A stretch of DNA of 42,006 nucleotides. It comes from Jimgerdemannia flammicorona (Eukaryota). The position numbers and the translations under genes are program-made. Below the pieces are notes generated by a model. The model had not been told where the DNA came from, ran no database searches, and saw only the letters and a program-made list of their open reading frames with translations. Where the stretch lies: positions 1 to 42,006 of the forward strand of contig RBNJ01000096.1 in assembly GCA_003990765.1 (NCBI GenBank), read 5' to 3'. Below are positions 1 through 33,138 of this stretch, one piece after another; the first letter of the stretch is position 1, and each line of letters starts with the position of its first letter.

Positions 1-3000
1 TTTATAGTCACTTAGACTCTGCCCTTTATTATCAGTCTATTAATAAGATTATATCATTTCCTCCCACTATCTGATCCCCATAGGGGAACCTCTCTCCACC
101 TCTTCTCAAACAAAGACCACCTTCTTGCCCACTACTCTAACCCTTCCTCCACTCTGTCTACAGATTTTCTCTACCAATTGACGTCTCTGACCACTCTGCA
201 ATTCCCAACCCTGTCACCAGCCAGTCAAAGTATCCTCCATAAGGCTATGCCACCACAGCAGCTGGACCCCTAAGTCCAGCCTCCTCCTCTCTTCAAAAAC
301 AAAAAGCCAGTGGCTGGCCAGCCCTACCTATATAGTAAGAGCCCAGTCTAATGTGATCCATTCCTTTCCCACCCCCCCCACCAGTCTATCTCTCAGATCT
401 GCCCACTGCCCCCACATACCACCTTCTAGGTTTCCTATCCCCAAGTGAACCCCAACAGTCTACCAAAAGTCACCAAGTACTTCACACTCTCCTAGCCAAT
501 GTTCAGGTATCTGCACATATCCTCCTTCTATTCCCACATTATAGCACTCCTTATAGTCGAAACAACCTTCCTCGATAAGATGATCCATGTAATAGTTGAG
601 CATTATATTCCTCCTCAGCATGTGTCACTAGGTCACCCAGTACTTTGGTGGCATCCATCTCCTCACCTTTGCACTCCAGGCCCAAATGTCATACCAGGCC
701 CAATTTTCTCCAATTCCAACACCTTGCCAACCACCGGGCCACAGATCCTGGCCTGGTCCCCTCTGGCAATCTATTCCATCACTAATGTCGAACTTGAGTA
801 AGGGAGCACTACCCAGTAGTATCTGGTCCCACCTCTATATTGCTTGGTCCCAATCTACCTTCCCTTCATTTTCTTGCCAATGAATGCCAATACAGTACAC
901 TCCTTCTGCCACCCCCCACCAGAAGCCTCTATATCTCAATTGTGCAGTGTTCCTAAGACCAACCAAAGGTAGGAGGTCTCCAGTTAAGCCTTGCAGTGAG
1001 GTTCTCATCTTCTAGACCTTCTGTAGTAGGGATACCCAATCTCCCCCTCTCAGCTCCATAGCTCTCTTCATCTACCATACTCTCAAACAGTGAAGCCTCT
1101 TTGAAAAATCAACCAGCCCAAGTCCACCACTTGCCACTGATAGAGACAAGACCTTCCAGCTGATATGGCTCCTTCTTCCAGCCCAGATCCATCTCTTGGC
1201 TAGCTTCAACAATCTCTTCACCACCCAGGCTGGGAAGTCTAGATGATAAGCCAGATACCACAACTTCAGCAACCAGTATACATTCAAAATTGTGACATGC
1301 CCTGCTAGGGACAATTGATGGCCCCCCCAACTCTACAGGGTCTCTCCCTAGATTCCAACCCACTATTCTCACCAAAGCCTGGGTAGAACCAATCCATATA
1401 CTGATAGAAAGATACCCAAGTATCTCACTGTCTCACCAGTAGGGATGATCATTCCAATAACCTCCCCTCCCACCAGACCATTGCCTAACACCATTGTCTC
1501 ATACTTATGCCAGTTGAGCTTTGCCTCAGAATTCTCCTCATACTACTCTACTATCTCCTTGAGTTCCTTAACATCAGCAATCAATCTCAGTCTGACCACC
1601 ATATCATCCACAAAGACCCCTACTTTTTACTCAATGCCAAAGATGGAGAGCCCCACTATCTTCTGCCTGATTCTATTCATTAAGGGTTCCAGTGATAGGG
1701 TATATAGAATGGGGGATAGTGGGTCCCCCTGGGGTACCCCTCTGCCTAGGGGAAATACTACCCCTCTATGGCCATTATATATGAGTACAGCCCTACTCTC
1801 TTCCAGTAGGCCAATTATTGCTGACTAGAACTGGTGTAGAACCCCAGTCCTATCCAATACTTTTACCAACCAGACTCGCTGCACCTGGTCATAAGCCTTC
1901 TCCTGGCTCCTGGTCCAAAAAGACCAGGTATCCATCTAATCCATATGCTCACACCCCTTCAATAACCCCATGTATCCAGGCTATGCCATCCCTAATGAGC
2001 TGGCCTTCTACAAAGCCCCACTGCTCAATGTCCAAGACTTGCTGGGCCACCTTTTGTAGTCTTGCAACCACTACCTTAGTAACCAACTTTCTGTCCATAT
2101 CCAGCAGCATAATTGACCGCCAATTCTTCTAATCCTTTTGCCTTTCTTTGTTCTTATAAAGCAATGTCACCAATCCCAGATCCTGTTCTCCCACCCATTT
2201 CCCTGTCTGTAGAATGAAATCACATAGTGTTGTCATCTCTCTCAGTACTCCTGGGATCCCCACCATCTTCTTCCAGAAGTCCCAGGGCAAACTGTCCTCT
2301 CTAGACACTATACCCAGCAATGTTGCAACAAGAACCTGGTGGATCTCCTTTTCTTGTACAGGCAGCACCAAGTCTCCCACCCCATCTATGTACAGGGGGT
2401 ACCAATCCTCTAATGTATGGACAATGGCATTGGCATCCACACCACCCTCCTCCTCACTCCACAAATCATTCCAATGCTCCTTTAGAGATCCAAGAATGTC
2501 ATGTATACCATACACCAGTATACCATCTGAGTCTAACACCCCCTCCCACCTCTGCTGCACTCTTCTCACCTGAAGAGCTCTTGAGAGATACTTTGAGGGT
2601 CACTCTCCTTCTTCCAAACCCTGCCAACAGAGATGCACTACCAAGCTTTGCACCTTCACCTCTTCCTCCTCCCACAATATCTGTTGCAGTTCACCAACCT
2701 CCTTTTTCACCCTCATAGATCTCCAATTTTCCTCTCCCTCCAATGTTACCAGCCTCACCCAATCCTCCAAAAGCCTAGACAGTCTATTAGACATCCATCA
2801 CACTCGTTGTCTCCACTGTTTTCCAGCCTCCTTGCCAGCCTCACTTCAGTAGGTCCTGGCCATCTCTTTCATCCATAACCACTGAACACCAACTGGAGCA
2901 CCTTCTCATCTCCAGCACTCTACCCTCAGCTGAATGTCTGCAGCCCACTCATCCCACCAGACCTTATCATCTAATAATGAGGAATTGAGGCACCAATGTC

Positions 3001-5862
3001 CAGGCCCATCCCCACTCCCCCCAAGCTGCCCCTGTCCCAAAAGCCCCCAATAATCTGACCAAGGACACCATTCCACCTCCAGTGACTTCCAAACATCTAA
3101 GCCCCAGTAGCTGGCCATCAGGATCTAGTCGATCCTCATCCCCAAGCCCCCTGCCCAATGCATATATACCCTCCTATCTCCCCAGCACTCTCTGCCTGTA
3201 TCTACCAGAGCACTCAGCCTTTCCACTTCCTCCCATGCTGCCAGTCCACCACTCTGACTCTCAGCTCTCTGCCCTTCATCTGTTCTATCTAACAATATAT
3301 CTCAGACCATATTGTAGTCTCTACCCAGTATATCCACTCCAGCCTTCATGAGGATCCCACTCTCCTGAAGGCCCTTCACTCAATCCACATGCTCACCCCA
3401 TACTGCAGGGCAGTAGCAAGAGTCCACTGTGACTAGCTCCCATCCTGAACATATCCACTTACCCCAGACCAATCTATCTCCCCAGCTCTGCATATCCCTT
3501 ATCTTTCCTCTGCCTTTTCTCACCAGAATTCCAACCTTGCCTTTTCAAACTGCCTCACCTCCCCATTTCTTTGTTCATTCTAGTCTATCCAAATTATCAT
3601 CACATCTGATATCCTGTAAGAGGAAGAGATCAGCCTCCAATCCCTTCAGCCAAGTAAAAATATTCCTGTATCGAACCACACCCCATAGCCCATTCATGTT
3701 CAAAGAGAAAATGTTGATTATACTATTCATATTGAAGTATTATATAGTGATCCAGTCCAATCCTACTGCTCCATGTTCATCTCTTTATGAGCCAAATCCA
3801 GATTATGTTCTGTAATCACTGTCTCCTCCTCTGCCTGCTAAGCCTCCAATCCTGCCAACAATTCATTCATCTCCCCATCTGCCTTCTCCTCAAACTCCTC
3901 ATGGTACTCTAGGTAGGCCTCCTGCTAGAGCTGCAGTCTATGTCACTTGGCCCAACAGTATTTGGCCCTCTCACCAGCAATCCCTGCTAGCTCAGTCTCC
4001 CGCTCCTCATCCACTTCATATCCTTCCTCCTCCAGATATACTGCAAGGATCTCTGCCTTCAATGCCAACTCCACACTTTCTCCCTACAAGACCTGTGCCC
4101 AATGCTCATTGCTCATCACTCTCAAGTCCACCTCCCCCAGCTCTTCAGCCATCAGATTATTCATCATTCTACACATCCAGAGTAGGTTTCCTACCTCCTT
4201 CCCTCTTGGAGTTGCCGGTTGCCTGCCCTCCAACATTGTGGTATCAGCCCTGGCACTCGCAGCCTCATCCCACACCTCCAGGACATCCACTAGTTCCTCC
4301 TCACCAATGGCCTCTATCTGTCCCCCATTTGCCACCTCAGGAACTCCAAATTGCACTTTCTGGGCCCCCTTCATAGGCACATTCTCTCCCACCCTGCACT
4401 GGAAAGCCAGACCTCTCCTGATAAGAGAGGTAGGGGTAGGCAATCCCTCCCAGTCTTCTTCCCAGACCTCAAGTATACTATCAGTATATGGGTCACTACC
4501 AGCTGCCTTCCCACCCTCTCTTGATCCATTCTCCATACCCCTACTATCTTTGCCAGCCCAGATGCTTACTTTGGCACCCCCCATTTCCACCATTCTATCT
4601 GCCTCCTTCTATGGTCAACTCTCTATCTTAGCTAGTAGTTCCTTCTGACACTTACATCTCTGAGCTTTTTCCCATTGTACCTTGTCTACTCTAATTCACT
4701 TTCCATCCACTACCTCCAAGTGTATTAACTCCTTGAAAGCCTTCCAAGCCTTTACCCACCTCTCCACTGCTCCACTCAGTTCTTCTAGTGTCTCCAGCAA
4801 GTTCTCTTCCTCCTCCTCACTCCTCTTCACCCTCATCACTTTGCACAAGATCACCCCCCAGACCATCTCTGATGGCCAGTCTCTTGTCTTCCTAGTAGCT
4901 TCTTTCCCTGCCAGCTGAATCCACACATCCACATCTCCCATCCTGAGTGAGGTCCCCTCCTAGACTCTGAACCTGATATCCACCATCTCACTATACTCCA
5001 CCATGACCTCTTCAACTCTCCTTCTCGTCTCCATTGCCATCACTGTGGGCACTCCTTTCACCAGCAGTTGGACTACCCTAGGGTCCTACTTCAGACAACA
5101 TGCCATTGGGACACACACCTCTCCAACTATCAATCCAACCTTCAGTGCTTCCTCCAGGGGCTCGGCCTCCTCAAAACCAATCTCTGCTCCCTCTAATCCC
5201 TTTAGAAACTTCATAGATACAGCTCCAGCCACCTGCTTAGTGATAAGCCTCAGTACTATTTTTACCATCACTGCTAGGCCCTGGAAGCACAATGTCACCA
5301 CAAATACCAAAATCGATTTCTTGAGTAATGGAGCCACTGCTAGGCCCATCACACTGTCTGCTAAATCTCCTTGTCTTCCAAGCCTCAGTCACTCAGCCAT
5401 ACTATTAGTGGTCATATCTGGATTTTTTTCCAGATTAGCAGTTCCATCACTATTAGCCATCATAGTCCCCCCAGCCACTCCTCCCCCAGCTCTACTGCTC
5501 TCACCACCAAGAGCTGCTCCCCCACAAATGGCTGGTTTCTCCATCTCCTTGCCTTTTCACAGCCAGCCCTCCAGTTCAGTTGTCTGCTGCCTCTCCTTCA
5601 CTGTCTCCACAAAGCTCACTCTACCAGACCCCTGTCCTCCCCCACTGCCTTCTCCCCCACCTCATCCTCCTGCCAACAACCTCCTTATACCTCTCTCTAG
5701 GCCAGGACCCCTCTCCACCTGCTGCCAGTCAAATGCGCTAGGGCCACTCTACCCAGTATGCACCCCAGATTGCTTGTTGCTTGTCATTATCTTAGTACCT
5801 TTCTCCAATAAATGACTTGAAAGTGTGTGGTAAAGTATATGTAATGTGAGTAGTAGCTGGAA
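1..5862 (-). mobile_element. Full-length L1/Tx1-clade LINE, copy 1 (inactive; ORF1 ~5787-3763, ORF2 ~3730-67)
   Basis: Reverse complement is colinear with copy 2 (9779-15661) end to end. The 3' end AATAAAGGGCAGAGTCTAAGTGACTATAAA sits at window position 1. Minus-strand ORF fragments match ORF2 (SLAGHVTILNVYWLLKLWYLAYHLDFP, GLVTLLYKNK) and ORF1. Many stops. Confidence 0.95.
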
Positions 5863-6289
5863 TTAATATATTGTAAATAATTAAGATAACTATTAGCTCT
5901 AAGTTCTGAGTATTGTAAAGAAGTACTAAGTATAGTCCAAGTATTGCTTTTGGATTCTTGTACTGGTGAAAGTGCTTTGCTTGTATTTTAAGTTGATTAG
6001 ACTTAGAATTATTAATAAGTTAGATCTAAGAATTCTGTAATAAGAATATTACTTTATTCTTATATTTAGAGAAAATAGAACTAAGGTTACAATATACTCA
6101 GTATAGAGAATATTTATATAGATTTAAAGCTATATATAACTAAATATAGTATACTGAATATATCTAAATAGCTATATTATATTCAGTATTTATAACTACT
6201 AGTTAGAAATTCTGTAGAAATTTTTATAGAAATTTCTATTAGAATTTCTATTAGAAATTTCAGTAGCTTATATATAATAATTTATTATA
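5863..6289 (-). repeat. LTR-like repeat (family c) with adjacent polypurine tract
   Basis: Aligns to 31625-31907 + 33149-33349. The minus strand reads AAAAAAGAGAAGAA (6290-6303, PPT-like) immediately before TATAAT (TGTAAT after G>A). TATAAATA on the minus strand near 6111-6118. Confidence 0.6.
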
Positions 6290-6884
6290 TTCTTCTCTTT
6301 TTTATCTGAACCTTCTTATATATTAGATTTAGTACTAAACTCTAGATATTTATCAAACTAAAATATAGTATACTAAACTACTTAAAAAATAATATTGTTC
6401 TATTATTCATTACTCAAATTAGCAATATTCTTAGAGGATACTCTATAGAGGTAGTTGAGAACTTAAGGTCAGATATAGAAAAGGACATAAAGTCTTTTGA
6501 CAATAATATAGATATAGTTGTCAATGAAAAGACAGACTTATTGCTTAGTACTGCTGAGAGTAGCTTATTAATAGATAAGATATCTAATCTCATAGTACTT
6601 CTTTAATTCCTATTAGTAATAGAAAATCTGAAAATATTAAATTCTTCTAAGATATTATTAGACTTTATTTGGATCTGAGTCTTCAGAGATTTATATATTG
6701 ATAGAGAGTTTCTTGATAGTATATATATATATACTGCTCTGATTTCTGAATTAACTTCTTTACTTAGATAGTAGAGATGATATTGTATTTGAGTTTTGGC
6801 TTTTTTCTTAATCTGTTCTAACTATAGCTTAATATATTCTAGAGATTATATTAGTTTACCAGTCAATATATAGGTTTTTTTAAG

Positions 6885-7497
6885 TGAGCCAGGATTTTCT
6901 GAGAATGAGATTGTATTCTGAAAGATATATAATGTAAAAGGGGGTTTTGTACAGATACCTGAACATTGGCTAAAAGAGTGTGAGATACTTGGTGATTTTT
7001 GAATTGCTATAGGGGAGTATTTGAGAGTTCAGAGGATGGAAGATGTAGTGGGGGGCTATTGAGAGAACTTGAAGGTATGGCTTATAGAGAGAGTAGAGAA
7101 TGAGTAACTTATATATAGCTGAACCTTAGCAATTTGAGTGAGACTGACTGAGCATTAGATCTTTATATTTGAGGAAGAGTGGTAGTTGAGTCTTACTGAA
7201 AGGTTGTCAAGATGAGATGGATTGATGGAGAATCTCTTAACTAGCTAATAGGTGGGCTGGGGGACCTTAGGGTAGCTACCATCACTAGCTCATTGATAGG
7301 GTCTGCTGATAGAGTGGGGGGTTGAGTGGAGGTAATTACAGGCTGAGTGGTATTCAAATAAGTAGAGATTAAGGAGGTCCCTCCTAGGAGAATTAGATAG
7401 TGAGCAGGGTTGGATAGTATATGATATTGTATTTCTCTATATAGATTGCTTAGTAATAAAGGAGTCTAAGTGATTATAATATATATATATATATATA
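6885..7497 (+). mobile_element. 5'-truncated 3' fragment of the same LINE family (diverged subfamily), ending in (AT)n
   Basis: Encodes GGFVQIPEHWLKECEILGDF like copy 2 (GGYIQTPEYWLEECEVLGDF). Ends AATAAAGGAGTCTAAGTGATTAT followed by an AT dinucleotide run. Confidence 0.9.
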
Positions 7498-8742
7498 ATG
7501 TGGAATATCTGCTTTATAGTATAGTCTCTTAGTTGTAGAAATATATTTTTGTAGATTTTAAAGAGTTTCTGAGTTGTTCTATTTTCAAATATAGTAATAT
7601 TTTCTTCTGAATTTCTTTATATCTTGAGTCTGAACTTGTCAGTAGTCTCTTGTTAAAATAATACTTATTTGCTCTACTATTAATGAGAACTTCAATAAAG
7701 CTTCCTTTGATTTTTCTTTATAGATAGATATATTCAGAGTTGTCTTTTTACTAAGTAGTAATTATTTCTAGAGAGCCTTCTTCTTTCTAATCTTATATAT
7801 CTCTATCTTCTTTATTGATGTTCTTAATTTCTTTATTCTATTATTCTGAGATAGTTAACTTATATACTTTTTGAATTTGAGAATATTATAATATATTCTC
7901 TGATATATTCAAAATATATATCTTAATTTTATAAGATCATCATCCTATAGAGACATATCTATCTATAATGTGCTGATACTATTTCTGATCTCAGTCTTGA
8001 GATTTTTTAATATGAATAATCTTCTATATCTTAGTCTTCTCCTTGACCTTGTCAGAGTACTTTTCTGTTGATCTAAAAGTTTTTCTCTTCTATTAGAGAG
8101 TAATAGTTTATTTGTTTCTTTGACTTCAAGATTATTATATATTATCTTAATGATGGCTTAAGTGATTCATTTTTCATATATAATTTCAACTATCTTCTAT
8201 CTAGTGTTATGTAGTAAGACCTTGATTTCATCTTTGAATTCTTAATCTATAACTTCTCTAGCTATATAGAGTCTCTCTTCCTTAGCCAGACTACTCTTTT
8301 CTATAAGACAGATATAGAATTCTTTAGAGATCTCTATTCTAATATCTATGCTAATAGTTGCTTACTTATTTAGTTTAATAATTACTTTTATGCTAGAGTA
8401 GAGATTATAGCTAATATCAGATTTATATACTTTGTCTGGGATTTTTGCAGTGATATAGAATCTCTTGATCTTGATTTTTTTAGAGATTCTTTTGAGATTA
8501 TCTCCTATTATAGTGATAGTATATGAGAAGAATAGTTTTTTTATTTATAATGATCTTTTGTTAGAGTATTTGCAAGATATATATCCTCTCTTTTTATAGT
8601 GAAAATATGCTTCTTTTTTCATAAGCTCTTCTATTTCTTTATCAGATAGTTTCTTAAATCTATCTTGTGATCTTGAGGACTTATTTTAAGATTTATACTT
8701 CTTCTCAAATTGATATTATTTATCTCCTTTAATTATTTCTAT
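7498..8742 (-). mobile_element. Ty3/gypsy-type retrotransposon relic, part 2: gag zinc knuckle - dUTPase - aspartic protease
   Basis: Manual minus-strand translation gives KLSDKEIEELMKKEAYFHYKKRGYISCKYSNK, which becomes CxxCxxxxHxxxxC on reverting transitions (8566-8607). Then dUTPase motifs at 8063-8475, then KIKGSFIEVLINSRANKYYF (=VLIDSGA protease active site, ~7657-7714). Confidence 0.85.
8063..8475 (-). pseudogene. dut: Trimeric-family dUTPase domain encoded by the retrotransposon (degenerate)
   Basis: Reads IKIKRFYITAKIPDKVYKSDISYNLYSSIKVIIKLNK*ATISIDIRIEISKEFYICLIEKSSLAKEERLYIAREVID*EFKDEIKVLLHNTR*KIVEIIYEK*IT*AIIKIIYNNLEVKETNKLLLSNRREK/FRSTE. All five dUTPase motifs (AGYDL, RSGLA, GVIDxxFxGEI, GxRIAQ, RGxxGFGSTG) are recovered almost entirely by reverting G>A/C>T changes, plus one 1-nt deletion in motif 5. 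Confidence 0.9.
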
Positions 8743-9868
8743 TAGTGCTTCCAAATAAATTAAATTAATTTAAATTAAATTGAATTGAAAGTCATTCAAA
8801 TTGAATTAAATTAGGGATTTTTAAATTTGAATCAAATTTAAATCAAATCAAATTCAAATCAAATTAAGATCTAATTTAATTTGATTGAATTGAATTAAGG
8901 TCTGATTTAATTTAAAATATTTATCCTAAATTCAAAATATAATAACTCAATAGAAATATATCCAAATTTAATATTCTTTATTATACTAGATTCTCTATTA
9001 TAAGGTATTTGAACTAGTACTCCTAAACAAATTAAATCAATTCAAATTAAATCAAATTGGAGATTTTTTAATTTAAATAAAGTTCAAATTGAATTGAGGG
9101 TCTAATTTGAACCCTATTTTTCAAAATATAATACTTCAATAAAAATATATTCAAATTTAATAATTATTAGCTTTTTAGATTTCTCTTATATATAGAGAAA
9201 TCTAATAAGCTAAAGATCATTAGATTTGAATATATTCTTATTGAGTTATTATATTTCAAAAAATAGAGTTCAAATTGAATCTTGAATTAAATTAGACCTT
9301 TGATTTAATTTGAATTAAATTGAATTAGATCTTTGATTTAATTGAATTAAATCAAATTTGGATCAATTTAATTTTTTTTTTTTTTTTTTTTTTTTTTTAA
9401 TGGACTCATAGTCTTGCAGATTTTTATTAGAAGAGAACCTAGACTATATAGGCCAAAACCCTCCCCCACCACCCACTGAACAATATCTCCCCATTAACCT
9501 AGGCTACTAAATTGTCCAGCAGTTCCACCACTCCAGCTATACCTGTCAAATACTGGCTATATTGACTCCTATAATATAGACTAGACTTATCTGCTCACCA
9601 GAGCTGGATCATCATTTACACATGAGAGCACACCTATGCATCAGATCTAGCAGCACTAGGATTGAATAAAGAATAGTCTCCTGAACTCTAAAAGAAAGTC
9701 TAAGGTAAAGAAAAAAACCTCCCAACTAACTAACAGAGAGTAAAGCAGATTCAAAGCAGGTGAGTAAAGAACTTATATATAGCAGACATCTCTTTCCAGT
9801 ACCATTCAGGTTACACAATCTTTGGAAGGTACTTTCAACATCATTTTCGGTGAAAAGAGACTAACAAC

Positions 9869-11892
9869 ATAGCAACCGACAGACAACCTGAGGTGCATAC
9901 TGGGCAGGGTGGCCCAAGCGCTTTCGACTGGTAGCAGGTAGGGAGGGGTCCAGGCCTGGGGGGAGGTATGAGGGGCCTGCTGGCGGGTGGACATGGAAGG
10001 GGTGGAGGAGGTGGTGGAGGAGCAGGATCTAGGAGGGCAAGCTTCACGGAGATGGTGAAGGGGAGATAGCAGGTATTAGGGCTGGAGGGCTGGCTGAGGA
10101 AGGGCAAGGAGACCGAGAAGGCAACAGCACCGGGGGGAGTGGCCCTTGGAAGGGAGGGTGGTGGAGCTGGGGGAGGAGTGGCTGGGGGGGGTGTGACTAC
10201 TGATGGTGTTGAGACTGTCGATCTGGAAAAAAATCCAGATGTGATGGCTGATGGCGAGGCTGAGCAACTGAGGCTTAAAAGACAAGGGGACATGGCAGAT
10301 GGTGTAATGGGTCTGGCGGTGACCCCATTACTCAAGAAATCAATTTCAGCATTCGCAGTCACACTGTGCTTCCAGGGCCTGGCAGTGATGGCGAAAATGG
10401 TGCTAGGGCTCATCACTAAGCAGGTGGCAGGTACAGTATCTGTGAAGTTTTTGAAGGGACTGGAAGGAGTGGAGGTGGGTTTTGAGAAGGCAGTACTGCT
10501 GGAGGAGGTGCTGAAGATTGGATTGGTGGTGGGGGAGGTGTGTGTTCTGATGGCACGGTGCCTGAAGTGGGACCCCAGGGTGGTCCAACTGCTGGTGAAA
10601 GGAGTGCCGATAGTGACAGTGATGGAGACAAGGAAGAGAGTTGAGGATTTCATAGCAGAATATGGCGAAGTGGTAGATATCAGGTTCAGGGTCTGGGAAG
10701 GGACCTCGCTCAGGACTGGTGACATGGATGTGAGGATTTGGCTGGCTAGGAAAGAGGCCACTGAGAAGGCAAGGGATTGGCCATTGGCAATGGTCTGGGG
10801 AGCAATCCTGTATAAGGTGACAAGGGTGAAGGGGAGTGAGGAGGAGGAGGAGGATTTACTGGAAGCACTAGAAGAGCTGGGTGGTGCTGTGGAGAGGCGA
10901 GTGAAGGCATGGGAGGCTTTTGTAGAGGTGACGCACTTGGAGGTGGTGGATGGAAAGTGGATTCGAGTGTCCAAGGAGTAGTGGGAAAGAGCTCAGGGGT
11001 GTAAGAGGCAGAAGGAGTTGTTGGCCAAGCTGGATAGCAGACCACTGGGGGAGGTGAGCAAGGTGAAGGGCACAGGGGGAGCTGAAGCAAGTGTCTGGGC
11101 CGGCAAGGGGGAGGGGAAGGACAAGAAGAAGGCGGGAGAGGACAAGAAGAAGGCTGGGAAGGACCCGTATGTAGATGGTACACTGGAGGTGTGGGAGGAG
11201 GACTGGGTGGGCTCCCCTACCCCTACCCCTCTCATCAGGCATGGCCCGGCTTCCCGGATTAGGGTGGTAGAAGATGTGCCAATATGAGGGGCCCAGAGGG
11301 TGCAATTCGGAGTTCCAGAGGTGGCATATAGGGGACAGGTAGTGGTGGCTGGCGAGGAGGAATTGGTGGATGTCCCAGAAGTATGGAATGAGTCTGCAAG
11401 TGCTGTAACTGACACCACAATATTGGATGGAGGGAGGCTGGTGACTCCGGGGAGGAAAGAGGTGGGGAACTTGCTTTGGATGTGCCGGATGATGAATAAC
11501 CTGGCAGTGGAAGAGTTGGGGGAAGTGGACTTACGAGTGATGAGTGATGAGCATTGGGCAGGAATACTGCAGAGAGATAGCATAGTGAAGGCATTGAAGG
11601 TAGAAATTCTTGTGATGACCTGGAGGAGGAAGGGTATGAGGTGGATAAGGAGCAAGAGGAGGAGATGGCGGTTGTTGCTGGAGAAAGGGCTGAATACTGC
11701 TGGAACAAGTGACATGGACTATAGCTCTGGCAGGAGGCATGTATCGAATACCAAGAAGAGTTTGAGGAGAAGGCCGATGGCGAGATGAATGAACTGCTGG
11801 CTGGATTGGAGGCTCAGAGGGCAGAAGAGGAGGAGGTGGCTGCAGAATGTAATTTGGATAAGGCGCAGGAGGAGATGAGCATGGATCAGTAG
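9869..11892 (+). pseudogene. LINE ORF1 (~670 codons; RRM-like region plus acidic/coiled C-terminus), disrupted
   Basis: Start codon is ATA here but ATG in copies 1 and 3. Contains VQLLVKGVPIV...IAEYGEVVDIRFRVWEGTSLRTGDMDVRIWL, resembling the RRM region of L1/Tx1 ORF1p. In-frame stops and one frameshift near 11616 relative to copies 1 and 3. Confidence 0.8.
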
Positions 11893-11925
11893 AGGCTGAT
11901 TGACGACATCATATATATCATCAAT

Positions 11926-14900
11926 ATGAACAGTATAACCAACATTTTCTCTTTGAATGTGAATGGGTTATGGGGTGCTTCTTGACATGGGAACATTTTT
12001 ACTTGGATGAAGGGATTGGAGGCTGATCTCTTCCTCTTGCAGGATGTCCGGTGCGAAGATGACTCTGATAGGTTAGAATGGACGGAGGAATGGGGAGGTG
12101 TGGTGATTTGAAAGGGCAAGGTTGGGATTTTGGTTAGGAAAGATAGAGGGGAGATACAGAATGTGCAGTGCTGGGGAGAGAGACTGATCTGGGGAGAATG
12201 GATTCGGGCAGGCTGGGGGCCAGTTACGGTTGGCTCCTGCTACTGCCCTATAGTACAGGGTGAGAGAGTAGATTGGGTGAAAGGCTTACAGGAGAGTGGA
12301 TTACTTGTAGAGACTGGGGTAGATGTACTCGGGGGAGATTTCAATATGGTCAGGAATATACTGCTGGATAGAACAGATAGAGGACGAGGTGCTGAGAGCA
12401 GGAGTGGGGGACTGGTGGCATAGGAGGAAGTAGAATGACTATGTGTGCTATTGGATGCCAGAAGGGAGTGCTGGGGGAGTAGGAGGGTCTATACACATTG
12501 GGCAGGGGGTCTGGGGACTAGAATCGACTGGATTTTGACAGCCTACTGCTGGGGACTAGATGTTTGAAAATCATTGGAGGTGGAATGGTGTCCATGGTCA
12601 GATCACTGGGGGCTTTTAGGACAGGGGTACTTTGGGGGAAGTGGGGATGGGCCTGGACATTGGTGCCTCAATTCCTCTTTGTTAGATGACAAGACCTGGT
12701 GGGATGAGTGGGCTAAAGACATTCAACTGAGGGTGGAGAACTGGAGGCAGGAAGGGGCCGCAGTTGGGACTCGGTGGATGAGGATGAAGGAAATGGCCAG
12801 GATTTACTGGAAGGAGGCTGGCAAGGAGGCAGGGAAGCAGTGAAAACAAAGAGTGTGCTGGGTCTCTGCCAGATTGACGAGGCTCCTGGAGGAGTGGGCA
12901 AGGCTGACGATGTTGGAGGGAGAAGAAGATTGGAGGTTAATGAGGGCGAAAATAGAGGTTGGGGAACTTCAACAGGTGCTGTGGGAGGAGGAAGAGGCAA
13001 GGGTACAGAGCTTGGTGGCATGTCTTCACTGGCAGGATCTGGAGGAAGGAGAGAGGCCTTCCAAGCTTCTTACAAGGGCCCTTAGGGCGAGGCGGGTCCA
13101 GCAAAGGTGGGAAGGAGTATTGGACTCTGATGGTGTACTGGTGCATGATGTACAGGACATTCTTGGATCGCTGAAGGAGAGATGGAGTGGATTGTAGAGT
13201 GAGGAGGAGGGTGGGGCAGATGCTGCTACTATTGAATGAACATTGGAGGATTGGCACCCACCACAAGTCGAAGGGCTAAGGGACCTGGTGATGCCTGTAC
13301 AGGAGGATGAGATCCACCAGGTTTTTGCTGTGACAATGTCCGGTATGGCGCCTGGGGAGGATGGTCTGCCCTGGGACTTTTGGAAGTGAATGGTTGGAGT
13401 CCTAGGGGTGATGGAAGAGATGACAGCATTGTGTGACCTTATTCTACAGACAGAGAGGTGGGTGGGGGAGCAGGACCTTGGGCTGGTGACACTGCTTTAC
13501 AAAAACAAAGGAAGGTGGGAGGATTGGAAGAACTGGCAGCTGATAATGCTGCTAGATATGGACAGAAAGTTGGTAACTAAGGTGGTGGTGGCGAGACTAT
13601 AGAAGGTGGCCCAGCAAGTCATGGGTGTTGAGCAGAGAGGATTTGTGGGTGGTCAGCTCATCAGGGATAGCACTGCCTGGGTGCATAGCATTATCGAAGG
13701 GGCAAGGGCCTGTGGACTGGATGGGCATCTAGTCTTCTTAGACCAGGAGAAGGCATATGACCAGGTGCGAAGAGTCTGGCTGGAGAAAGTTTTAGATAGA
13801 ATGGGGGTATCGCATCAATTCTGGTCGACAATGGTCAGCCTACTGGAAGGGAGTAGGGCTGCACTCACATATAATAGACATAGAGGGGTAGCATTCCTCT
13901 TGGGTAGAGGGGTGCCCCAGGGGGATCCATTGTCCCCCATTTTGTATGCTCTTTCTCTGGAACTGCTTATGGACCGAATTAGGCAGAGGATAGTGGGGCT
14001 CTCTGTCTTTGGTATAGGATGGAAGGTTGGGGCCTTTGCTGATGACATGGTGGTGGGTTTGGGTTCGATTGCTGATGTTGAGGAGCTCAAGAGGATGGTG
14101 GAGTGGTATGAGGAGTATTCTGGAGCTAAGCTGAATTGGCATAAGTGTGAGACGATGGTGCTCAGTAATGGCCTGGTGAGAGGGGAAGTTATAGGAACAA
14201 TTGTCCCCACCGGTGAGGCAGTGCGGTACTTAGGTATCTACTTATCAGTCTATGGGTCAATTCTGCCCAAGCTTTGGTAGGAGCAGAGGATTGGAATCTG
14301 GGAGGAGGCTCTGCGGAGTTGGGGGGGAAGACATTTTTCTCTAGCAGGGCGGGTCTCGATTTTGAATGTCTACTGGCTGCCAAAGTTGTGGTACCTGGCG
14401 TATCATCTGGACTTCCCAGCCTGGGTAGTGAAGAGATTGATGAAGTCGGCGAAGGGATGGATTTGGGCTGGCAGGTGGAGTCAAATTAGTTGGGAGACCT
14501 TGTCCCTATCAGTGGCAAGAGGCGGTCTTAGGCTGGTTGACTTCCCAAAATGGCTACACTGCTTGAGAGCATGGTGGCTGAAGAGAGTGGTGGAGTTGAG
14601 AGGAGGTGGATGGGTTTCTCTGTTACAGAAGATATGGGAGAGGTGGGCATCACTAAGGGGCTCAACTGGTGATCTCCTCTCCTTAGTTGGGCTTCAGAAC
14701 ACTGCCCAACTATGATATAAAGGATTTTGGTGGGGGATTGCAGAAGGAGTGCACCACATTGGTATTTGTTGGCAGGGGAATGAAGGTGAGGAGGATTGGG
14801 ACCCAGCGATATGGTGATGGGATCGTATACTGCTGGGTGGTGCTCCTTTAGTTGAGTTCGACATTGGTAATGGAATGGAATGCCAAAGGGGACTAGGCCA

Positions 14901-15582
14901 GAATCTGTGGCCTAGTGGTTGGCAAGGAGTTGGAATTGGCGAAGAGTGGAACTGGTATGGTGTCTGGACCTGGAGTACTACAGTGAGAGCATGGCTGCCA
15001 CCAAAGTACTGGGTGGTCTGGTGGTGCATGCTGTGGAGGAATGTTATGCTCAACTTTTGCTCAGGGCACCTTGTTGTAGGGGGTTGCTTCGACTGTGAGG
15101 AGTGCCATAATGTAGAGCAGGAGGGGGGTTACATACAGACACCAGAATATTGGCTAGAAGAGTGTGAGGTGTTGGGGGATTTTTGGCAGACAATTAGGGA
15201 TCGCTTAGGAGTATAGGGTAGGAGTGATGAAGTACGGGGGTGGTGGGAGGACTTGAGGGATAGATTGGTAGGGGGGATAGGGAAGGAGTGGCTTACTTTA
15301 GATTGGGCTTTAGCTATTTGGGTGGGGCTGGCCAGTCATTGGCTATTTGTTTTTGAGGATAGGAGGTGACAGAGCTTGGGGGACTAGCTGCTGCGATGGC
15401 ATAGGCTTATGGAAGACACCTTAACAGGCTGGTGGCTGGGTTGGGGGATGCGGGGTGGTCGGAGATACCGCTTGGTAGAGAAAATCTGCAAGCAAAGTGG
15501 GGAGAGAGTTGGGGTAGTTGGTGAAAGGGTGATTTTCATTCATGAGGAAGTAGAGAGGGGCCCCCCTGTGGGGATTGGATAG
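11926..15582 (+). pseudogene. LINE ORF2: APE endonuclease + reverse transcriptase + C-terminal Cys/His region (1218 codons, single frame, ~14 in-frame stops)
   Basis: APE motifs FSLNVNGL, LGGDFNMV, TRIDWIL, WSDHWG. RT motifs LDQEKAYD, GVPQGDPLSPILY, AFADD, VRYLGIYL. L1-clade motif SLAGRVSILNVYWLPKLWYLA. ORF-track fragments at 12130, 12574, 12853, 13390, 13606, 14362 and 14875 all share the frame of the ATG at 11926. Confidence 0.97.
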
Positions 15583-16705
15583 TGGGTTGGACTGATGTAT
15601 ATTTATTCATAGACTGGTAATAAAGGCGGAGTCCAAGTGACTATAAAAAAAAAAAAAAAAAAAAGAACTTATATGCAGAATCTTCCACAAAGGACTTACA
15701 CATAGGCTAGGGCCAGAAAAGACCCCACTCTCACTCCCCAAGCCTGCAGGCCTTGATCATGTTGCTGTATCAGCTCTCAGTTCTAGTCAGATATAGCCAA
15801 ATAAGGAAGATCCCACTCTCTAAGCCTGTGGGCCTCAATTACATTGCCACATCAGCTCCCGGTTCCAGTTGGATACAGCCAGGATACCAGCTCCTACACC
15901 ACCCCACCCCCCATCAGCCAATCAAAAGGCCCTACCAAAATATTATCTGCCCTAGCCCTGATGACTGCCTCCAGCCTGGTACTCCACTGGTTCATCATTA
16001 TCACTCTTCCTCCTATCTGTGATGGCCATCTCCCCTCCTATCCTGACAACACTCAAAAAACAGTCACCTATGCTAGAACTGTACTCGCTGGGAAGCTTGC
16101 CAAAGCCAGAGGGCTCCACTACAGATACTGAGGACCTGCAGGTAATCTATACTGAGCACTTGACACCCAAGGTTGACTAACTCTCTACGTAGCCTGAGAT
16201 ATACTGAGACAGCATCTTATTGGCAATGGCAAAAGGAAGAAGATGCCACACTAAAATAGATGTACTCCAGATGCAGCTGAAGGTACTAGAAACTGTGAAA
16301 AAGTGGAGAAGACATCAATCTGATACTGATAAAGGGGCAACTTATCACCATTGCCCTCCTCCTACTATGCCCATGTAGACACAGCAAACTAACCTGAGGT
16401 AGAGGGGGTAATAATAGGAGAAAAGGGACTCAGAAGGTTACCTACCAAACCTTATAACTGGTAAGGTAGTAGAGAAAGGAGCAACTTAATTCAATTCAAT
16501 TTATTAAGAATACTATATTGAATAAGCTAAAATTTATTAAATTTAGATATATTTTAGTAAAGTTATTGAATTTTGAAAAATTAATTCAAATTGGACTTTA
16601 AATTAAATTAGACCTCAATTTAATTTGAATTAAATCAAATTGAGTCTCAATTTAATTTAAATTAAATTAGAGGTAAATTTATTCATTCTAAGTATTAGTT
16701 TCTAT

Positions 16706-18215
16706 TATCTCTTAACTTTTGGGCTATAAGAATGATGTGTGCTCTGATGATAGCTTGTTCTAAGTACTATTTCTTATATGGACAATTATAGAGTTATTCT
16801 TATTTATAAATTTTCTCTAATAACTATCTGGGAATAGTATCAAAGAAGTAGACAGCTTGAGTTCTATTTATAGTCTATTCTTATCAGCTATATTCTACTT
16901 CTATAATATTTAGGAGAGTTTTTAGTTTTATAGCAAATACTTTAAGATCTTCTTTTCTATTATTGTAAAATTGAAGGTTCTTAAGCTTGGTTTTGACTTC
17001 AGCAATATGGACAGAGCTATAGAACTAGTGGATAATTAGTTTCTTTAGGCTTACAGTAGCTGAGTAGATTTTATAGTTAGAGTAATTATCTTTTTCTTCA
17101 CTTATATTAATTTTGATATAAGTTTCTTAGATAAGAGGGTATACTGATAGATTATACTACTACTGGGTAGCTATACCTATAAAATGAGTAACAATTTTCT
17201 CTACTTATAAGTCTAGTATAGAGATCTTCAATCTTATAGTGCTTATTATTATTAAGAGTATTATCTGAATTCTGATTATCATTTCATCCATTAATATAAT
17301 AATTAGTATTAACTTGTTTTATGAATGCTATTACTTAGTCTGCTTTGCTTTCAAATGGTATAAGGTGGAGGTCTTTTGTAGATTTGTTTATTTTAATATT
17401 AAGATAAAGAGCTTAAGTAAGTATAATTACTTAGTTAGCCAGTACTACTATCTTATCATTTACTGATATCATTCTACTATCTCTATTATCTATTTAGTGA
17501 GATAGTTAGGGTTCTTCTTCTGTTGTTATAATATATCAATTATAATTTAGGTTTAACTATTCTGAAGTAGGTGAGCTTATAGACTAGTGGTCTTAATAAG
17601 ATAACTATTAGATCTGCTGTGATTTTTAATAAGCTTGATATTTTTAGTAGTAGTTCTGTAACAGTACTGGAACTACTAATATTAGGTTCAGATATCTCTT
17701 TAATTATTCTTCTAGGTCTGGATGATATAACAGAGGCCTTACTAGATTCAGTAGCTTATAGTTCTTATTACTAGATTATTCTTACTTATATAGAGAATTT
17801 GATAATAGAAGTAAGATTTCTTTTAATAGATATAGTATCTCTTATAATTCAGAAAGGCCTTAGCTTTGTAGTAGTAATTATTAGAAAGGAGGTTTAGAAA
17901 ATATTTACTTATAGCCTTAATAAATTCTCATATATTTCTCATAAAAGTGACTGCTGATTAACTTATTGAATTTCTTCTTAAGTTGGATAATATAGAGGAC
18001 TTCTTTATTGAGTATGAGAAAGATATTAAATACTTCTTAAATAGTTTCATTATTAAGTTTATCAAACTCCTCTTAGCTAGTATGAATTTTAGTCTACTTA
18101 GTGATAATTCTGTTAGATTCTTTAGCTTAAGTCTGGAGAGTATCTAGAGTAAAGATACTTTTTAACTATCACTAACAATATTAGTAATATTGATTGATTC
18201 TGATTATCTATAGTA
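16706..18215 (-). mobile_element. Ty3/gypsy-type relic, part 1: gag N-terminal/capsid region
   Basis: Minus-strand fragments KDLHLIPFESKAD*VIAFIKQV, KIVTHFIGIATQ** and LKKLIIH*FYSSVHIAEVKTKLKNLQFYN...KLKTLL resemble a retrotransposon capsid domain. Linked to 7498-8742 by the 8-bp TSD of the intervening MITE. Confidence 0.65.
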
Positions 18216-18579
18216 GATTTCTGAAAAAAGATTACTCATAAATAAGAAGTAACTTCTGCTATAAGAGAGTTACTTTATTAGAGTACTATTATATAGTTCT
18301 GAAAGAGTTTTTAGAAAGTTCTAGATATTCTGGAAGACTATTTTCTTTAAGGTCAAGATTAATTTCATATAGAGTATATCCTTTATACTTATTGATTTCA
18401 AGATCAGATTGATATCTCAACCAAAGTCCTTTTTCAGACTAGTTCTAGATGTTTAGGAGTTTTTATATTTCAGAAAGTTCAAGAAACTAAGACCAGCTTA
18501 GTTGAATTGATATATTGTTATAGATAATACCCAATTAGGAAATTTTGTGATCTGGTTAGGAGTGGGACTTAATGGGGTA

Positions 18580-18665
18580 TAGGCCCCCTAGAGGGATCAG
18601 ATAGGGGTAGACCTAGTGTATTATATGAGATAGACAGCTGTATTAATAAAGGAATGAGTCTAAGA

Positions 18666-18748
<83 letters not shown>
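18580..18748 (+). mobile_element. Extremely 5'-truncated LINE insertion (~93 bp + ~76 nt poly(A))
   Basis: Matches the LINE 3' end (GGCCCCCTAGAGGGATCAGATAG...AATAAAGGAATGAGTCTAAGAGACT). 13-bp TSD ACTTAATGG(G/A)GTA at 18567-18579 and 18749-18761. The empty site is present in the paralog at ~21747-21760. Confidence 0.92.
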
Positions 18749-18751
<3 letters not shown>

Positions 18752-19080
18752 TAATGGAGTACAGATTTACTTAAGAGTAGTTTGTAGATTATTAAATAGA
18801 TTTATTCACTATTCATAATATTGTTATACTAAGAGTAGTTATATAAGAGAATATTTGTATGAAGAAGTGTTCAGAAGTTCTGAGCTATTTTTGTCTATTT
18901 GAGTTTAGATTTCTGAGATCTAAAAGAGTAGGTATTTATACTAATGAGAGGCTATTAGAACTATACTAAATATAGATATAGTACTTAGTACTTTTGATGA
19001 GTCAGAATGTAGTCACATAGTATAATTATAAACTGATATATCAAGAGATCATCTGACTGCTGAGTCAGTATATAGTATAT

Positions 19081-21193: not shown

Positions 21194-21441
21194 GTAATTA
21201 TATAGTATAAGGTTAATCTAACTATACTAATAACTGCTAAGCTATCTATAGATTTAGATACTATCTGAATATTTTTCAATGAGATTACTATCAATAATAT
21301 CATCTTTGATAAAGTAGTCATCTAAGAAGAGCAGTTCTTGAAATATATCTTCTTACTTATTTATATAGTAATATATAGGTTAGAACTATATTACTGTCTC
21401 ACAGAATAGTATCATCTATCTCATATGCTAAATAGAGTATC

Positions 21442-22305
21442 TATAAGAGAGTTACTTATAAAAGTACCATTATATAGTTCTGGAAGAGTTTTCTGGAAGT
21501 TCTGAATATTCTAAAAGACTGTTTTCTTTAGGTCAAGATTAATTTCATATGGAGTACATCCTCTATATTTATTGATTTCAAGATCAGATTAACATTTCAA
21601 CCAAAGTTCTTTTTTGGACTAGTTCTGAATGTTCAGAATTTTCCATATTTCAGAAAATTTAAGAAACTAAGACTAGCTTAGTTGAATTAGTATATTATTA
21701 CAAATAATATCTAATTAGAAAATTTTATAATATAGTTAGGAGTGGGACCTAATAGAGTGCAGATTTACTTAAGAGTGATTTGTGGGTTATTAAATAGATT
21801 TATTCACTATTTATAATATTGCTATACTAGAAATAGTATATGAAGGAATATTGAGAGAAAGTATTCAGGAGTTCTTATATGTTCAGATTATTTGAGTCTC
21901 AGTTTCTAAGATCTGAAAGAGAGAGTATTTATACTAATAGAGAGCTTTCTAGACTATGCTAAATATGGATGTAGCACTTAGTGCCTTACTAAGTTGGAAT
22001 GCAGTTATATAGTATAAGTGTGAACTGACATATTAAGAAATTATCTGACTATTGAGTCAGTATACAGTTACATCATACAAGGTTAATTTAACTATACTAA
22101 TGACTGCTAAACTATCTATAGATTTAGATACTGTCTAGATAATCTTCAATGATATTACTATCAATGACATTATCTCTGATGAAGTAGTTGTCTAGAAAGA
22201 GTGGTTCTTGGATTACTTCTCTCTGTTCACTTAGATAATAATACATTGGGATCATATTACTATCCTATAGGATAGCATCATCTGTCTCATATACTAGATA
22301 TGGAG
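21442..22305 (-). repeat. LTR-like unit a2, head-to-tail with a1, uninterrupted
   Basis: Starts TATAAGAGAGTTAC as at 18260. Candidate CA termini at 22079 (CATCATACA) or 22328 (AGAGTACA). Similarity to a1 extends to ~22305. Confidence 0.75.
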
Positions 22306-23075: not shown

Positions 23076-23080
23076 TGATT

Positions 23081-28883: not shown

Positions 28884-28925
<42 letters not shown>
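23081..28925 (+). mobile_element. Full-length L1/Tx1-clade LINE, copy 3 (most decayed)
   Basis: Colinear with copy 2 from the 5' UTR (GTCATCTTTCTCTGGTAATATTCAGATTATACAA) to AATAAA...AGTCCAAGTAATTAT and poly(A) at 28890-28925. FLDQKKAYD and VRYLGIYL are still visible. No TSD found. Confidence 0.95.
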
Positions 28926-28929
<4 letters not shown>

Positions 28930-29022
28930 CCATCTTGATCTTTAGTGAGAAATATTATATAATCTAGGTATTCTATATGATGAATCTCCTTAATAAATAT
29001 AGCTTAGCAGAATATATGAAGC

Positions 29023-30583: not shown

Positions 30584-30619
30584 TTATAAATAAAGTAATA
30601 TAGTATTACTCTTACTATG

Positions 30620-33082: not shown

Positions 33083-33138
<56 letters not shown>

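Follow-up and report, generated by a model that had tools for sequence, protein, structure and literature searches.

In all likelihood, two minus-strand segments of the window, by which we mean the whole 42,006-nucleotide stretch of Jimgerdemannia flammicorona contig RBNJ01000096.1 that was analysed, are parts of one dead LTR-retrotransposon-like copy (7500-8742 and 16698-17388) whose Gag consisted of a capsid-like region, a linker, a zinc knuckle and a dUTPase, and which has been taken apart by nested insertions and RIP-like decay. The copy belongs to a small gag-NC-dUTPase family that was otherwise encountered only in environmental sequence. The original prediction of a retroelement gag relic with a dUTPase directly after the nucleocapsid knuckle was borne out, with the same layout present in one ORF of the intact proteins P0001, P0152, P0104 and P0060.

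The dUTPase domain was recognised once 7498-8742 was translated on the minus strand with stop codons read as X. Pfam family PF00692 then matched at 36.7 bits (E 4.1e-9), above its gathering cut-off of 22, and the match covered residues 99-213, equivalent to nucleotides 8448-8104 and to profile positions 3-115 of 129. Only one of the three minus-strand frames of 6000-9300 gave this signal. Within the trimeric dUTPase at 8104-8448 (-), which is also covered by the best phmmer match (P0001), motifs 1, 2, 3 and 4 lie in a single frame at 8415-8401, 8298-8284, 8256-8224 and 8175-8158. Motif 5, identified by translation and the codon table as TFRST where the relatives have GFGST, lies at 8066-8080 (-) and is out of frame by one base. 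All five conserved motifs of trimeric dUTPases are therefore present in order, several of their positions fitting only when transitions are allowed. It had been proposed that the five share the frame of the knuckle, which is true of motifs 1-4 and untrue of motif 5. Since motif 5 is read in a different frame from the other four, a 1-nt deletion between 8158 and 8080 is implied; the distance from the Gln codon of motif 4 to the Phe codon of motif 5 is 83 nt, versus 84 nt in P0001. Knuckle and dUTPase do share one frame and are separated by a single TAA, as originally described, but that description does not extend to the dUTPase itself, which contains five in-frame stops. With these stops, the frameshift and the altered motif residues, the sequence is that of a pseudogene rather than of an intact enzyme.

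The relic knuckle, AYFHYKKRGYISCKY, occupies 8566-8607 (-) and lines up, position by position, with the CFxCxxxGHISxxC of four intact relatives (alignment A1). Tyr now stands at each of the four zinc-ligand positions. The codons at 8607, 8598 and 8568 are TAY where the relatives have Cys, TAT at 8583 takes the place of their His codon, and a single transition would turn each of these TAT or TAC codons into one for Cys or His. Pfam zf-CCHC did not match the window knuckle, and a search of the short piece returned 0 families even at E<=10. The knuckle at 8607-8566 is thus below Pfam detection, though the alignment to the four relatives supports it. Upstream is the basic gag linker RFKKLSDKEIEEL (8610-8742, -), which aligns with RFKKLSDED of P0152 and KFKKLTEMS of P0104, and tblastn placed residues 111-319 of P0152 on 8715-8080. 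A second knuckle after the dUTPase, of the kind found in P0152, was also considered, but the candidate YYNILKFKKYIS is not derivable from CX2CX4HX4C through transitions alone.

The intact relatives came from an exhaustive phmmer search of 1.84 billion representative sequences, which yielded 337 matches at E<=1e-3. The best of these, P0001 (78.4 bits, query residues 11-217), spans both the knuckle and the dUTPase. In P0001, P0152, P0104 and P0060, each a single ORF, zf-CCHC is directly upstream of the dUTPase, and in the five-row alignment A1 the window and these four proteins run collinearly from RFKKLS, by way of the knuckle, as far as motif 4. The P0001 group resembles the window in having a capsid-like region, a basic linker (RFKKLS...), one CCHC knuckle and a dUTPase in the same order; in the group a spacer of about 35 residues separates knuckle from dUTPase and all parts are encoded in one ORF. 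Identity to the window is 26-31% at face value, the window copy being dead. After its dUTPase P0001 has a Cys/His-rich tail of 60 residues followed by a stop, and P0152 ends with a second knuckle; no counterpart of either can be recognised in the window. Only about four of the proteins examined combine knuckle and dUTPase, all of them from metagenome or transcriptome sources, and P0001, P0151, P0152, P0104 and P0060 are JGI/IMG, ENA and SRC records. A scan of metagenome contigs with alignment A2 retained 80 loci, all generic dUTPases, with a gag/NC match in 0 of 80, and a scan of IMG/VR with alignment A3 gave 150 pattern matches and 0 relatives.

The relatives also led to a second piece of the gene, whose identification as the putative capsid-like part of the same gag is new to this follow-up. 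Residues 290-346 of P0151 matched 17388-17218 and residues 353-521 matched 17204-16698 by tblastn (joint E 6e-20), while residues 8-87 of P0104 matched 16955-16716 (E 3e-7). This helical, capsid-like segment (16698-17388, -) carries stops and one frameshift. It ends near residue 189 of P0001, and the nucleocapsid piece resumes near residue 206, about 17 residues on. The label Gag for the region upstream of the knuckle rests on architecture. Pfam gag families had no match in this region of the relatives even at E<=10, an AlphaFold2 run on P0151 with a 4-row alignment gave a mean pLDDT of 37 and no usable model of the capsid-like region, and hhalign of alignment A3 against P0156 aligned the dUTPase alone.

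Collinearity bears on whether a processed pseudogene of a host dUTPase might merely have come to lie beside an unrelated knuckle-like string. A family dUTPase of cellular eukaryotic type (see below) and a knuckle missed by Pfam would both fit such a chance juxtaposition. However, four independent intact proteins show linker, knuckle, spacer and dUTPase in collinear alignment with the window, the capsid-like part of that protein turns up 8 kb off in the order and orientation expected, and the signal is confined to one of three frames, so we regard this explanation as barely credible.

The two gag pieces are separated by an insertion complex of about 7.95 kb (8750-16697, no strand assigned) that was delimited by self-BLASTN, tandem repeats, Pfam RVT_1 and junction sequences. 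It is composed of an AT-rich AATTTAAATT-type repeat at 8750-9372 and 16521-16690, poly-T at 9372-9398, a retroposon tail at 9398-9794, an L1-like LINE on the plus strand (copy B, 9794-15647; Pfam RVT_1, 96.2 bits) and a further segment at 15647-16520. No clear target-site duplication was found at the gag insertion junctions, where there is only a loose ACTAATA..GAA resemblance. On the other side of the nucleocapsid piece, recognisable retroelement sequence ends at the 3' part of another member of the LINE family of copy B, truncated at its 5' end and carrying a TA-rich tail (6922-7500, +); this fragment was identified by tblastn with residues 1059-1177 of the LINE B ORF2 (6922-7272, E 2.7e-16) and by BLASTN of 6940-7175 against 15124-15359 (67% identity), with a TA run at 7470-7500. 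Two further LINE copies, A and C, were observed in 1-5799 and 23301-28899. A protein search with the LINE ORF2 gave 75 matches, the best 26-31% identical, and those from plants, a fish, insects and a yeast were at 21-29%. Elsewhere in the window a Pol32/Cdc27 gene lies on the minus strand at about 38499-41209.

No RT, RNase H, integrase, LTR or PBS belonging to the element was found in the window by six-frame Pfam scans, which covered everything outside 1-5799, 23301-28899 and the minus strand of 9301-15699, or by tblastn with 11 relatives, which covered the whole window. The sole RT recovered in the Pfam scans was the RVT_1 of the LINE, and tblastn with P0155-P0158 against the whole window matched nothing besides the dUTPase. 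The element is cut at about 7500 and its 3' end lies outside the window; it may continue past the window edge. With these searches of the window yielding neither RT, RH and IN nor an LTR, the assignment to gypsy is without support. Direct repeat blocks were seen upstream of gag at 18259-19498 and 20805-22300, and no tie between them and the element was found.

A DSGA-type protease had been predicted downstream of the dUTPase. The candidate active-site motif, LINSRA (compare LIDSGA; 7670-7687, -), is in the frame of motif 5, about 125 codons past it, and is unverified. No Pfam protease family matched the minus-strand frames or the short piece, the latter even at E<=10, and at that threshold three of three short pieces, one each for knuckle, tail and protease, gave 0 families. 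A DSGA pattern that tolerates transitions has 32 matches among 32,658 AT-rich window positions, and of 5000 shuffled versions of the zone 1726 contain it too. Transition-tolerant Smith-Waterman alignment of 7500-7900 with the proteases of P0156 and P0002, by a scheme that was too permissive, scored 95-163, within the range of the decoys (means 147 and 126; 192 decoys each). The protease is therefore no more than a candidate, having no Pfam match, a motif no better than chance and an alignment within decoy range, and of the proposed NC-dUTPase-PR order the adjacency of NC and dUTPase is retained, with PR as a candidate.

A further reading is that the piece, now a mutated pseudogene, derives from the gag-like ORF1 of some non-LTR retrotransposon or from a member of a domesticated gag-dUTPase host gene family. 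Certain non-LTR elements do have CCHC knuckles in their ORF1, LINEs are abundant around the piece, and the searches of the window yielded no LTR, RT or IN of LTR type and, for PR, no more than a candidate motif. Yet the window's LINE family, which possesses a 5' region of its own, differs greatly in composition (38% G in the sense strand) and has no similarity to the piece, and the LINE fragment next to the piece runs on the other strand. The piece is moreover multi-copy and transition-mutated like a repeat, those database proteins with CCHC and dUTPase that have further domains carry an aspartic protease (P0156), and a DSG-like motif is located where a protease would be expected. We consider this reading improbable.

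Decay by transitions was examined in 71 columns at which at least three of the four relatives agree; the window is identical in 31 and differs in 40. Of the 40 departures from the family consensus, 22 are accounted for by C>T/G>A changes alone, 1 by changes in the reverse direction, and 4 and 5 by two transversion controls, which strongly supports the direction of change. The original statement that nearly every departure is a G>A or C>T change was thus an exaggeration. Inferred mutations were in CpA context in 12 of 23 cases, followed by CpC (7), CpT (2) and CpG (2), and zero CpG remain in 7500-8750. The RIP indices were mixed, at 1.03 for TpA/ApT and 1.15 for (CpA+TpG)/(ApC+GpT); the usual thresholds are 0.89 and 1.03, by which only one of these two classical measures qualifies as RIP-like. 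Sequencing runs X1, X2 and X3 were compared with 7400-8800, and a match to a second copy was confined to X1, where one 325-nt contig aligns with 7887-8159 and differs by 38 substitutions, 34 of them transitions running in either direction. This second, independently mutated copy includes the 3' end of the dUTPase, which argues against the one-off insertion that had been named as a possible objection.

The dUTPase domain was compared in three ways. By transition-tolerant identity of the domain alone, P0001 ranks 1 of 152 (0.625 versus a median of 0.50), and the other three family members rank 20, 82 and 111 of 152. A tree of dUTPases built by a quick method (149 rows after dropping rows of <110 aa, 140 columns) left 81 of 146 inner branches open, with the window row deviant in composition, and in it the gag-NC-dUTPase family was neither recovered as a clade nor excluded. 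A search of the PDB with the family profile returned 114 matches at E<=10; among the 60 listed, all were dUTPases and none a capsid, the closest being the cellular eukaryote-type enzymes 3f4f and 3p48 (about 143 bits). Also among these 60 of 114 matches, the family scored higher against cellular dUTPases than against retroviral ones, namely that of FIV (1f7d, 88 bits) and 1duc, from EIAV. A dUTPase nearest to the cellular type fits capture from a host gene.

Several fungal LTR retrotransposons with a dUTPase are on record, including PosPlaTy3-3, -4 and -5, Phanerochaete chrysosporium elements and Tmt1. According to Novikova et al. 2010 (PMC2864245), the dUTPase of PosPlaTy3-3 from Postia placenta is at the amino-terminus of Pol, and in the sister families PosPlaTy3-4 and -5 it is C-terminal in Pol or in the PR-RT interval. 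Upstream of PR is also the order proposed for the window, a likeness drawn from the published description and not from sequence, and by the criterion that the original prediction had set, an order already catalogued, the novelty of the domain order is largely refuted. Tuber Tmt1, together with rotifer and planarian elements, has its dUTPase between PR and RT, which agrees with what had been stated for Tmt1. In the later literature covered by our search, most subscription journals being outside it, no Gag-frame dUTPase was described in fungal elements. Retroelement polyproteins with PF00692 were also found among our own matches: P0156 with the order CCHC(275)-PR(505)-dUTPase(855), the copia-type P0157 (with P0155 and P0153) with gag, beta-barrel(643), dUTPase(810), IN(1084) and RT(1578), and P0158 from Paraglomus occultum with dUTPase(275)-RT(519)-RNase H. 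Unlike in the window, in none of these does the dUTPase directly follow a knuckle.

The original prediction had gone further, to the possible gag end of a genuinely new fungal Ty3/gypsy lineage that captured its dUTPase independently. The small number of relatives, with about four examined proteins combining knuckle and dUTPase, would suit such a lineage, as would a family profile nearest to cellular eukaryote-type and not retroviral dUTPases among the 60 of 114 PDB matches listed, and Novikova et al. (PMC2864245) state that fungal elements seem to have gained dUTPases independently from different sources. On the other side, the window holds no RT that could support gypsy, the dUTPase tree with its 81 of 146 open inner branches places neither window nor family, and the same order is in print for PosPlaTy3-3, so that we find this lineage unlikely. 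A bolder formulation, by which the window and its environmental relatives constitute a so far uncharacterised lineage of retroelements whose Gag itself includes the dUTPase as a domain, taken from a cellular eukaryotic dUTPase, is conceivable but rather doubtful. The reading that we favour is that of one dead LTR-retrotransposon-like copy with a dUTPase in its Gag.

A close functional parallel is in betaretroviruses. M-PMV has its dUTPase joined to the nucleocapsid (PMC1802613), and the betaretroviral NC-dUTPase is described (PMC1802613, PMC4531489) as a homotrimer that is encoded upstream of the protease and made above Pol level. The window resembles these proteins (MMTV p30, M-PMV) in the fusion of dUTPase to nucleocapsid. 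In betaretroviruses the protein is a transframe product of the gag-pro -1 ribosomal frameshift, whereas the relatives described here encode knuckle and dUTPase in a single uninterrupted ORF, and unlike betaretroviruses the window has no env or other retroviral features. The window element would thus have worked like Betaretrovirus NC-dUTPase and is not a member of Betaretrovirus. An order of knuckle then dUTPase is uncommon, yet has already been reported for fungal elements and betaretroviruses.

Gag of the living element would have run from a helical capsid-like region through a basic linker and the CCHC nucleocapsid knuckle to the trimeric dUTPase, with a protease probably next. The dUTPase would have been made within Gag or Gag-Pro and packaged beside nucleocapsid-coated RNA, where by hydrolysing dUTP it would have reduced the uracil put into cDNA by the reverse transcriptase; we infer this mechanism from betaretroviral NC-dUTPase. 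The copy in the window was inactivated by three routes: heavy RIP-like C>T/G>A mutation, the nested insertion of about 7.95 kb in gag (AT-rich repeat and L1-like LINE), and the second LINE fragment at about 7500.

Dead and fragmentary as it is, the window copy has its value as a pointer to the gag-NC-dUTPase family and as a worked example of how nested LINE insertions and RIP-like decay hide a domain from gene callers. Among LTR retrotransposons dUTPases are uncommon, and their varied position speaks of repeated borrowing of host nucleotide-hygiene enzymes. If the dUTPase is indeed inside the Gag ORF, trimeric NC-dUTPase would be produced at full Gag stoichiometry without a frameshift, as a convergent and more extreme counterpart of the betaretroviral NC-dUTPase transframe protein. 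A family with dUTPase inside Gag beside the nucleocapsid would parallel betaretroviral NC-dUTPase, and would offer a non-viral system in which to ask if physically coupling a dUTPase to the RNA-coating protein affects cDNA quality.

A degenerate dUTPase domain is present on the minus strand of the window. From 8742 to 8100, one reading frame runs from a basic stretch, RFKKLSDKEIEEL, through AYFHYKKRGYISCKY and a single TAA into a dUTPase-like run. The presence of the domain was confirmed by profile search, in which a translation with X placed at stops reached 36.7 bits (E 4.1e-9) against the Pfam dUTPase family PF00692, whose gathering cut-off is 22 bits. Residues 99-213 (nucleotides 8448-8104) aligned to profile positions 3-115 of 129, and of the three minus frames across 6000-9300 a single one gave the match. 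Zinc-knuckle and protease families gave no Pfam match on these minus frames, nor on short pieces at E<=10. When aligned with four intact relatives, the window sequence is collinear from the linker through the knuckle to motif 4. The knuckle in the relatives reads CFxCxxxGHISxxC, and at each of the four zinc-ligand positions the window has a Tyr codon that is one transition away from a Cys or His codon. Motifs 1-4 share a common frame with five in-frame stops, in which motif 5 is unrecognisable; it lies at 8080-8066 (minus strand), shifted by one base, as TFRST (GFGST in the relatives). The spacing from motif 4 to motif 5 is 83 nt in the window versus 84 nt in the closest relative, P0001, which indicates a 1-nt deletion. 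The single frame for knuckle and dUTPase in the original prediction thus holds from the linker through motif 4, across one TAA, but not for motif 5. The observation is real, partly as described, and its interpretation is partly supported.

An exhaustive phmmer search with the 314-residue translation against 1.84 billion cluster representatives returned 337 matches at E<=1e-3. The best was P0001 (485 aa, 78.4 bits), an environmental protein whose residues 210-414 aligned to query residues 11-217, starting before the knuckle and ending at the end of the dUTPase. In P0001, P0104, P0060 and P0152 (the last retrieved with P0001 as query), a single ORF encodes a CCHC knuckle and, approximately 35 residues further on, a complete PF00692 domain. 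A further relative, P0151, matches P0001 at 97% identity where the two overlap and reaches about 330 residues further upstream. These proteins come from metagenomes or transcriptomes, on contigs of 1-3.5 kb, and scans of IMG/VR and metagenome contigs added no DNA context for them. The window points to a small, uncharacterised Gag-dUTPase family. A chance juxtaposition of a dUTPase and an unrelated knuckle-like string is very improbable.

The region upstream of the knuckle is probably an LTR-retroelement Gag, a label drawn from its architecture, in which roughly 230 residues of helical character are followed by a basic linker and then the knuckle. No Pfam gag family matched P0151 or P0001 even at E<=10. 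An AlphaFold2 model of P0151 built from four sequences was all-helical, with a mean pLDDT of 37, too low for use, and the dUTPase was the only part aligned by hhalign between the family alignment and P0156, a CCHC-PR-dUTPase protein. That the region belongs instead to a non-LTR ORF1 or a domesticated gene family is unlikely.

At least three of the four relatives agreed in 71 alignment columns. The window was identical in 31 and different in 40, and for 22 of these 40 differences C>T/G>A changes suffice to turn a codon for the consensus residue into the codon seen, compared to 1/40 for the reverse direction and 4/40 and 5/40 for two transversion controls. The proposal that nearly every departure is C>T or G>A is thus borne out in direction (22 versus 1) but overstated in extent. 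Inferred contexts of the changes were CpA (12), CpC (7), CpT (2) and CpG (2), and no CpG is left in 7500-8750. This bias resembles RIP, but the classical indices (TpA/ApT 1.03; (CpA+TpG)/(ApC+GpT) 1.15) give a mixed picture against the usual thresholds. A 325-nt contig from one sequencing run aligned to 7887-8159 with 45 differences in 273 positions; transitions account for 34 of the 38 substitutions listed and run both ways (A>G 11, T>C 7, C>T 7, G>A 9). This is a second, independently mutated family copy that bears the 3′ end of the dUTPase, which argues against a one-off insertion of the domain into the window copy.

The DSGA-type protease proposed downstream was not demonstrated. A candidate motif, LINSRA (7687-7670, minus strand), lies in the frame of motif 5 about 125 codons beyond it, at the expected location and with Ser and Ala unchanged. 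A transition-tolerant DSGA pattern, however, occurs 32 times in 32,658 AT-rich window positions, 1726 of 5000 shuffled versions of the zone contain it, and transition-tolerant local alignments to the proteases of the database proteins P0156 and P0002 scored inside the decoy range.

More of the gag gene was found by tblastn on the minus strand, where P0151 residues 290-346 and 353-521 matched 17388-17218 and 17204-16698 (joint E 6e-20) and P0104 residues 8-87 matched 16955-16716. In P0001 numbering this capsid-like piece runs to about residue 189, and the piece with the knuckle picks up at about residue 206. The two make up one gag gene, interrupted by about 7.95 kb. The DNA between them contains a poly-T tract, a retroposon tail and an L1-like LINE (copy B, 5.85 kb, 9794-15647, plus strand; RVT_1 96.2 bits). 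An AT-rich dispersed repeat of AATTTAAATT-like units (17% GC; 8750-9372, 16521-16690 and 29046-29950, in both orientations) lies at both edges of this insertion complex and again after LINE copy C, and may represent the ends of an element into which copy B inserted. The recognisable element ends at about 7500, where it meets a TA-rich tail and, on the opposite strand, a 5′-truncated LINE 3′ fragment of the same family as copies A-C (6922-7500, plus strand; ORF2 residues 1059-1177 at 6922-7272). Beyond it are other repeats and then LINE copy A up to the window edge.

Six-frame Pfam searches were made on 15700-23300 and 28900-42006 (both strands), on 5800-15700 (plus strand) and on 6000-9300 (minus strand); the LINE stretches 1-5799 (copy A) and 23301-28899 (copy C) lay outside them. 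Apart from the dUTPase, they detected only LINE reverse transcriptase, a weak copia-gag match and a Cdc27/Pol32 gene. None of RT, RNase H, integrase and LTR could be recovered for the dUTPase element from these regions, and it is therefore not assigned to a superfamily; the window copy is dead and fragmented, and is probably a dUTPase-bearing LTR-type retroelement. The copia-type match (PF14223, approximately 29980-30170, plus strand; E 0.063, 13.2 bits, below cut-off) lies in another AT-rich block and was possibly left there by some other LTR element. Direct repeat blocks at 18259-19498 and 20805-22300 (plus strand; 78-85% identity, permuted order a-b-c versus c-a-b) lie a short way before the gag fragment when read on the strand of the element. 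They may represent LTRs, whether of the dUTPase element or of a different one, or else a tandem array. Between 17388 and 18259 there is exactly the room needed for the roughly 290 additional N-terminal residues of P0151.

LINE copies A (1-5862, minus strand) and C (23236-28925, plus strand) are, like copy B, near full-length, and the three copies are 67-75% identical to each other. Their relatives have APE, RVT_1 and zf-RVT domains; the best homologues are 26-31% identical, and the named ones (plants, a fish, insects, a yeast) 21-29%. On the sense strand G is strikingly frequent and C scarce (38% and 15%, respectively, for copy B, with a GC skew of about 0.45-0.5). Since most private changes are G>A or C>T, and these occur at comparable rates per site, the skew seems to be native and the copies partly RIP-mutated. 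Over its 1212 codons, ORF2 of copy B contains 16 stops. RIP-like mutation in the window would suggest a fungal host. The 3′ ends of poly(A) retroposons are marked by long pure homopolymer tracts (A77 18673-18749, A49 33087-33135, A36 28890-28925, T27 9372-9398, T30 36234-36263). One of them, A77, together with about 100 nt before it, breaks sequence that is contiguous in the repeat copy at 21441-22068. Dispersed repeats of 76-78% identity include an inverted pair (15919-16478 and 31923-32482) and 5861-6242, which resembles 31626-31907 plus 33135-33277. At the right-hand locus an insert of 1.2 kb that ends in poly(A) interrupts one of these repeats, indicating several layers of nested retroposition. 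Only 36300-41000 has ordinary composition, and part of it also occurs in sequencing runs X1-X3. A host gene encoding DNA polymerase delta subunit 3 (Pol32/Cdc27, PF09507; approximately 38499-41209, minus strand) lies there. Its C-terminal piece scored 43.3 bits, and its N-terminal pieces were seen in two further frames; the gene includes a PIP-box-like QKSLLSFW and seems to be split by short introns.

Among the PDB matches listed for the family profile, 3f4f and 3p48, cellular eukaryote-type enzymes from yeast, were the closest at about 143 bits, versus 88 bits for FIV 1f7d. This similarity fits capture of the dUTPase from a cell rather than a retrovirus, but in a tree of 149 dUTPase domains 81 of 146 inner branches stayed open. 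Betaretroviruses have a homotrimeric dUTPase fused to NC; since Gag supplies its N-terminal part, it is made above the level of Pol (PMC1802613, PMC4531489). The relatives in the P0001 group go one step further, with knuckle and dUTPase within one ORF. By analogy, an NC-linked dUTPase would likely lower dUTP near the reverse-transcription complex, leaving less uracil in the cDNA.

Among Gypsy families of Postia placenta, Novikova et al. 2010 (PMC2864245) place the dUTPase at the Pol amino-terminus (PosPlaTy3-3), at the carboxy-terminus (PosPlaTy3-4) or between PR and RT (PosPlaTy3-5). They refer to previous examples from Phanerochaete chrysosporium and Tuber melanosporum and suggest that the acquisitions were independent. 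The order PR-dUTPase-RT is described for rotifer and planarian elements and Tmt1 (PMC5408684, PMC6431247), and an Entomophthora muscae preprint lists dUTPase as enriched along with retroviral protease and zf-CCHC families. Besides P0156, database proteins with a dUTPase include P0157, which has a copia-type order, and P0158 from Paraglomus occultum (dUTPase-RT). By its published description PosPlaTy3-3 has the dUTPase upstream of PR, as proposed for the window, so this order is already in print for a fungal element. With PosPlaTy3-3 compared by description only, what may be new is the family, and a dUTPase that follows the knuckle immediately within the gag ORF. The dead window copy probably belongs to a kind already known, the dUTPase-bearing LTR-type retroelements, and also points to a Gag-dUTPase family.
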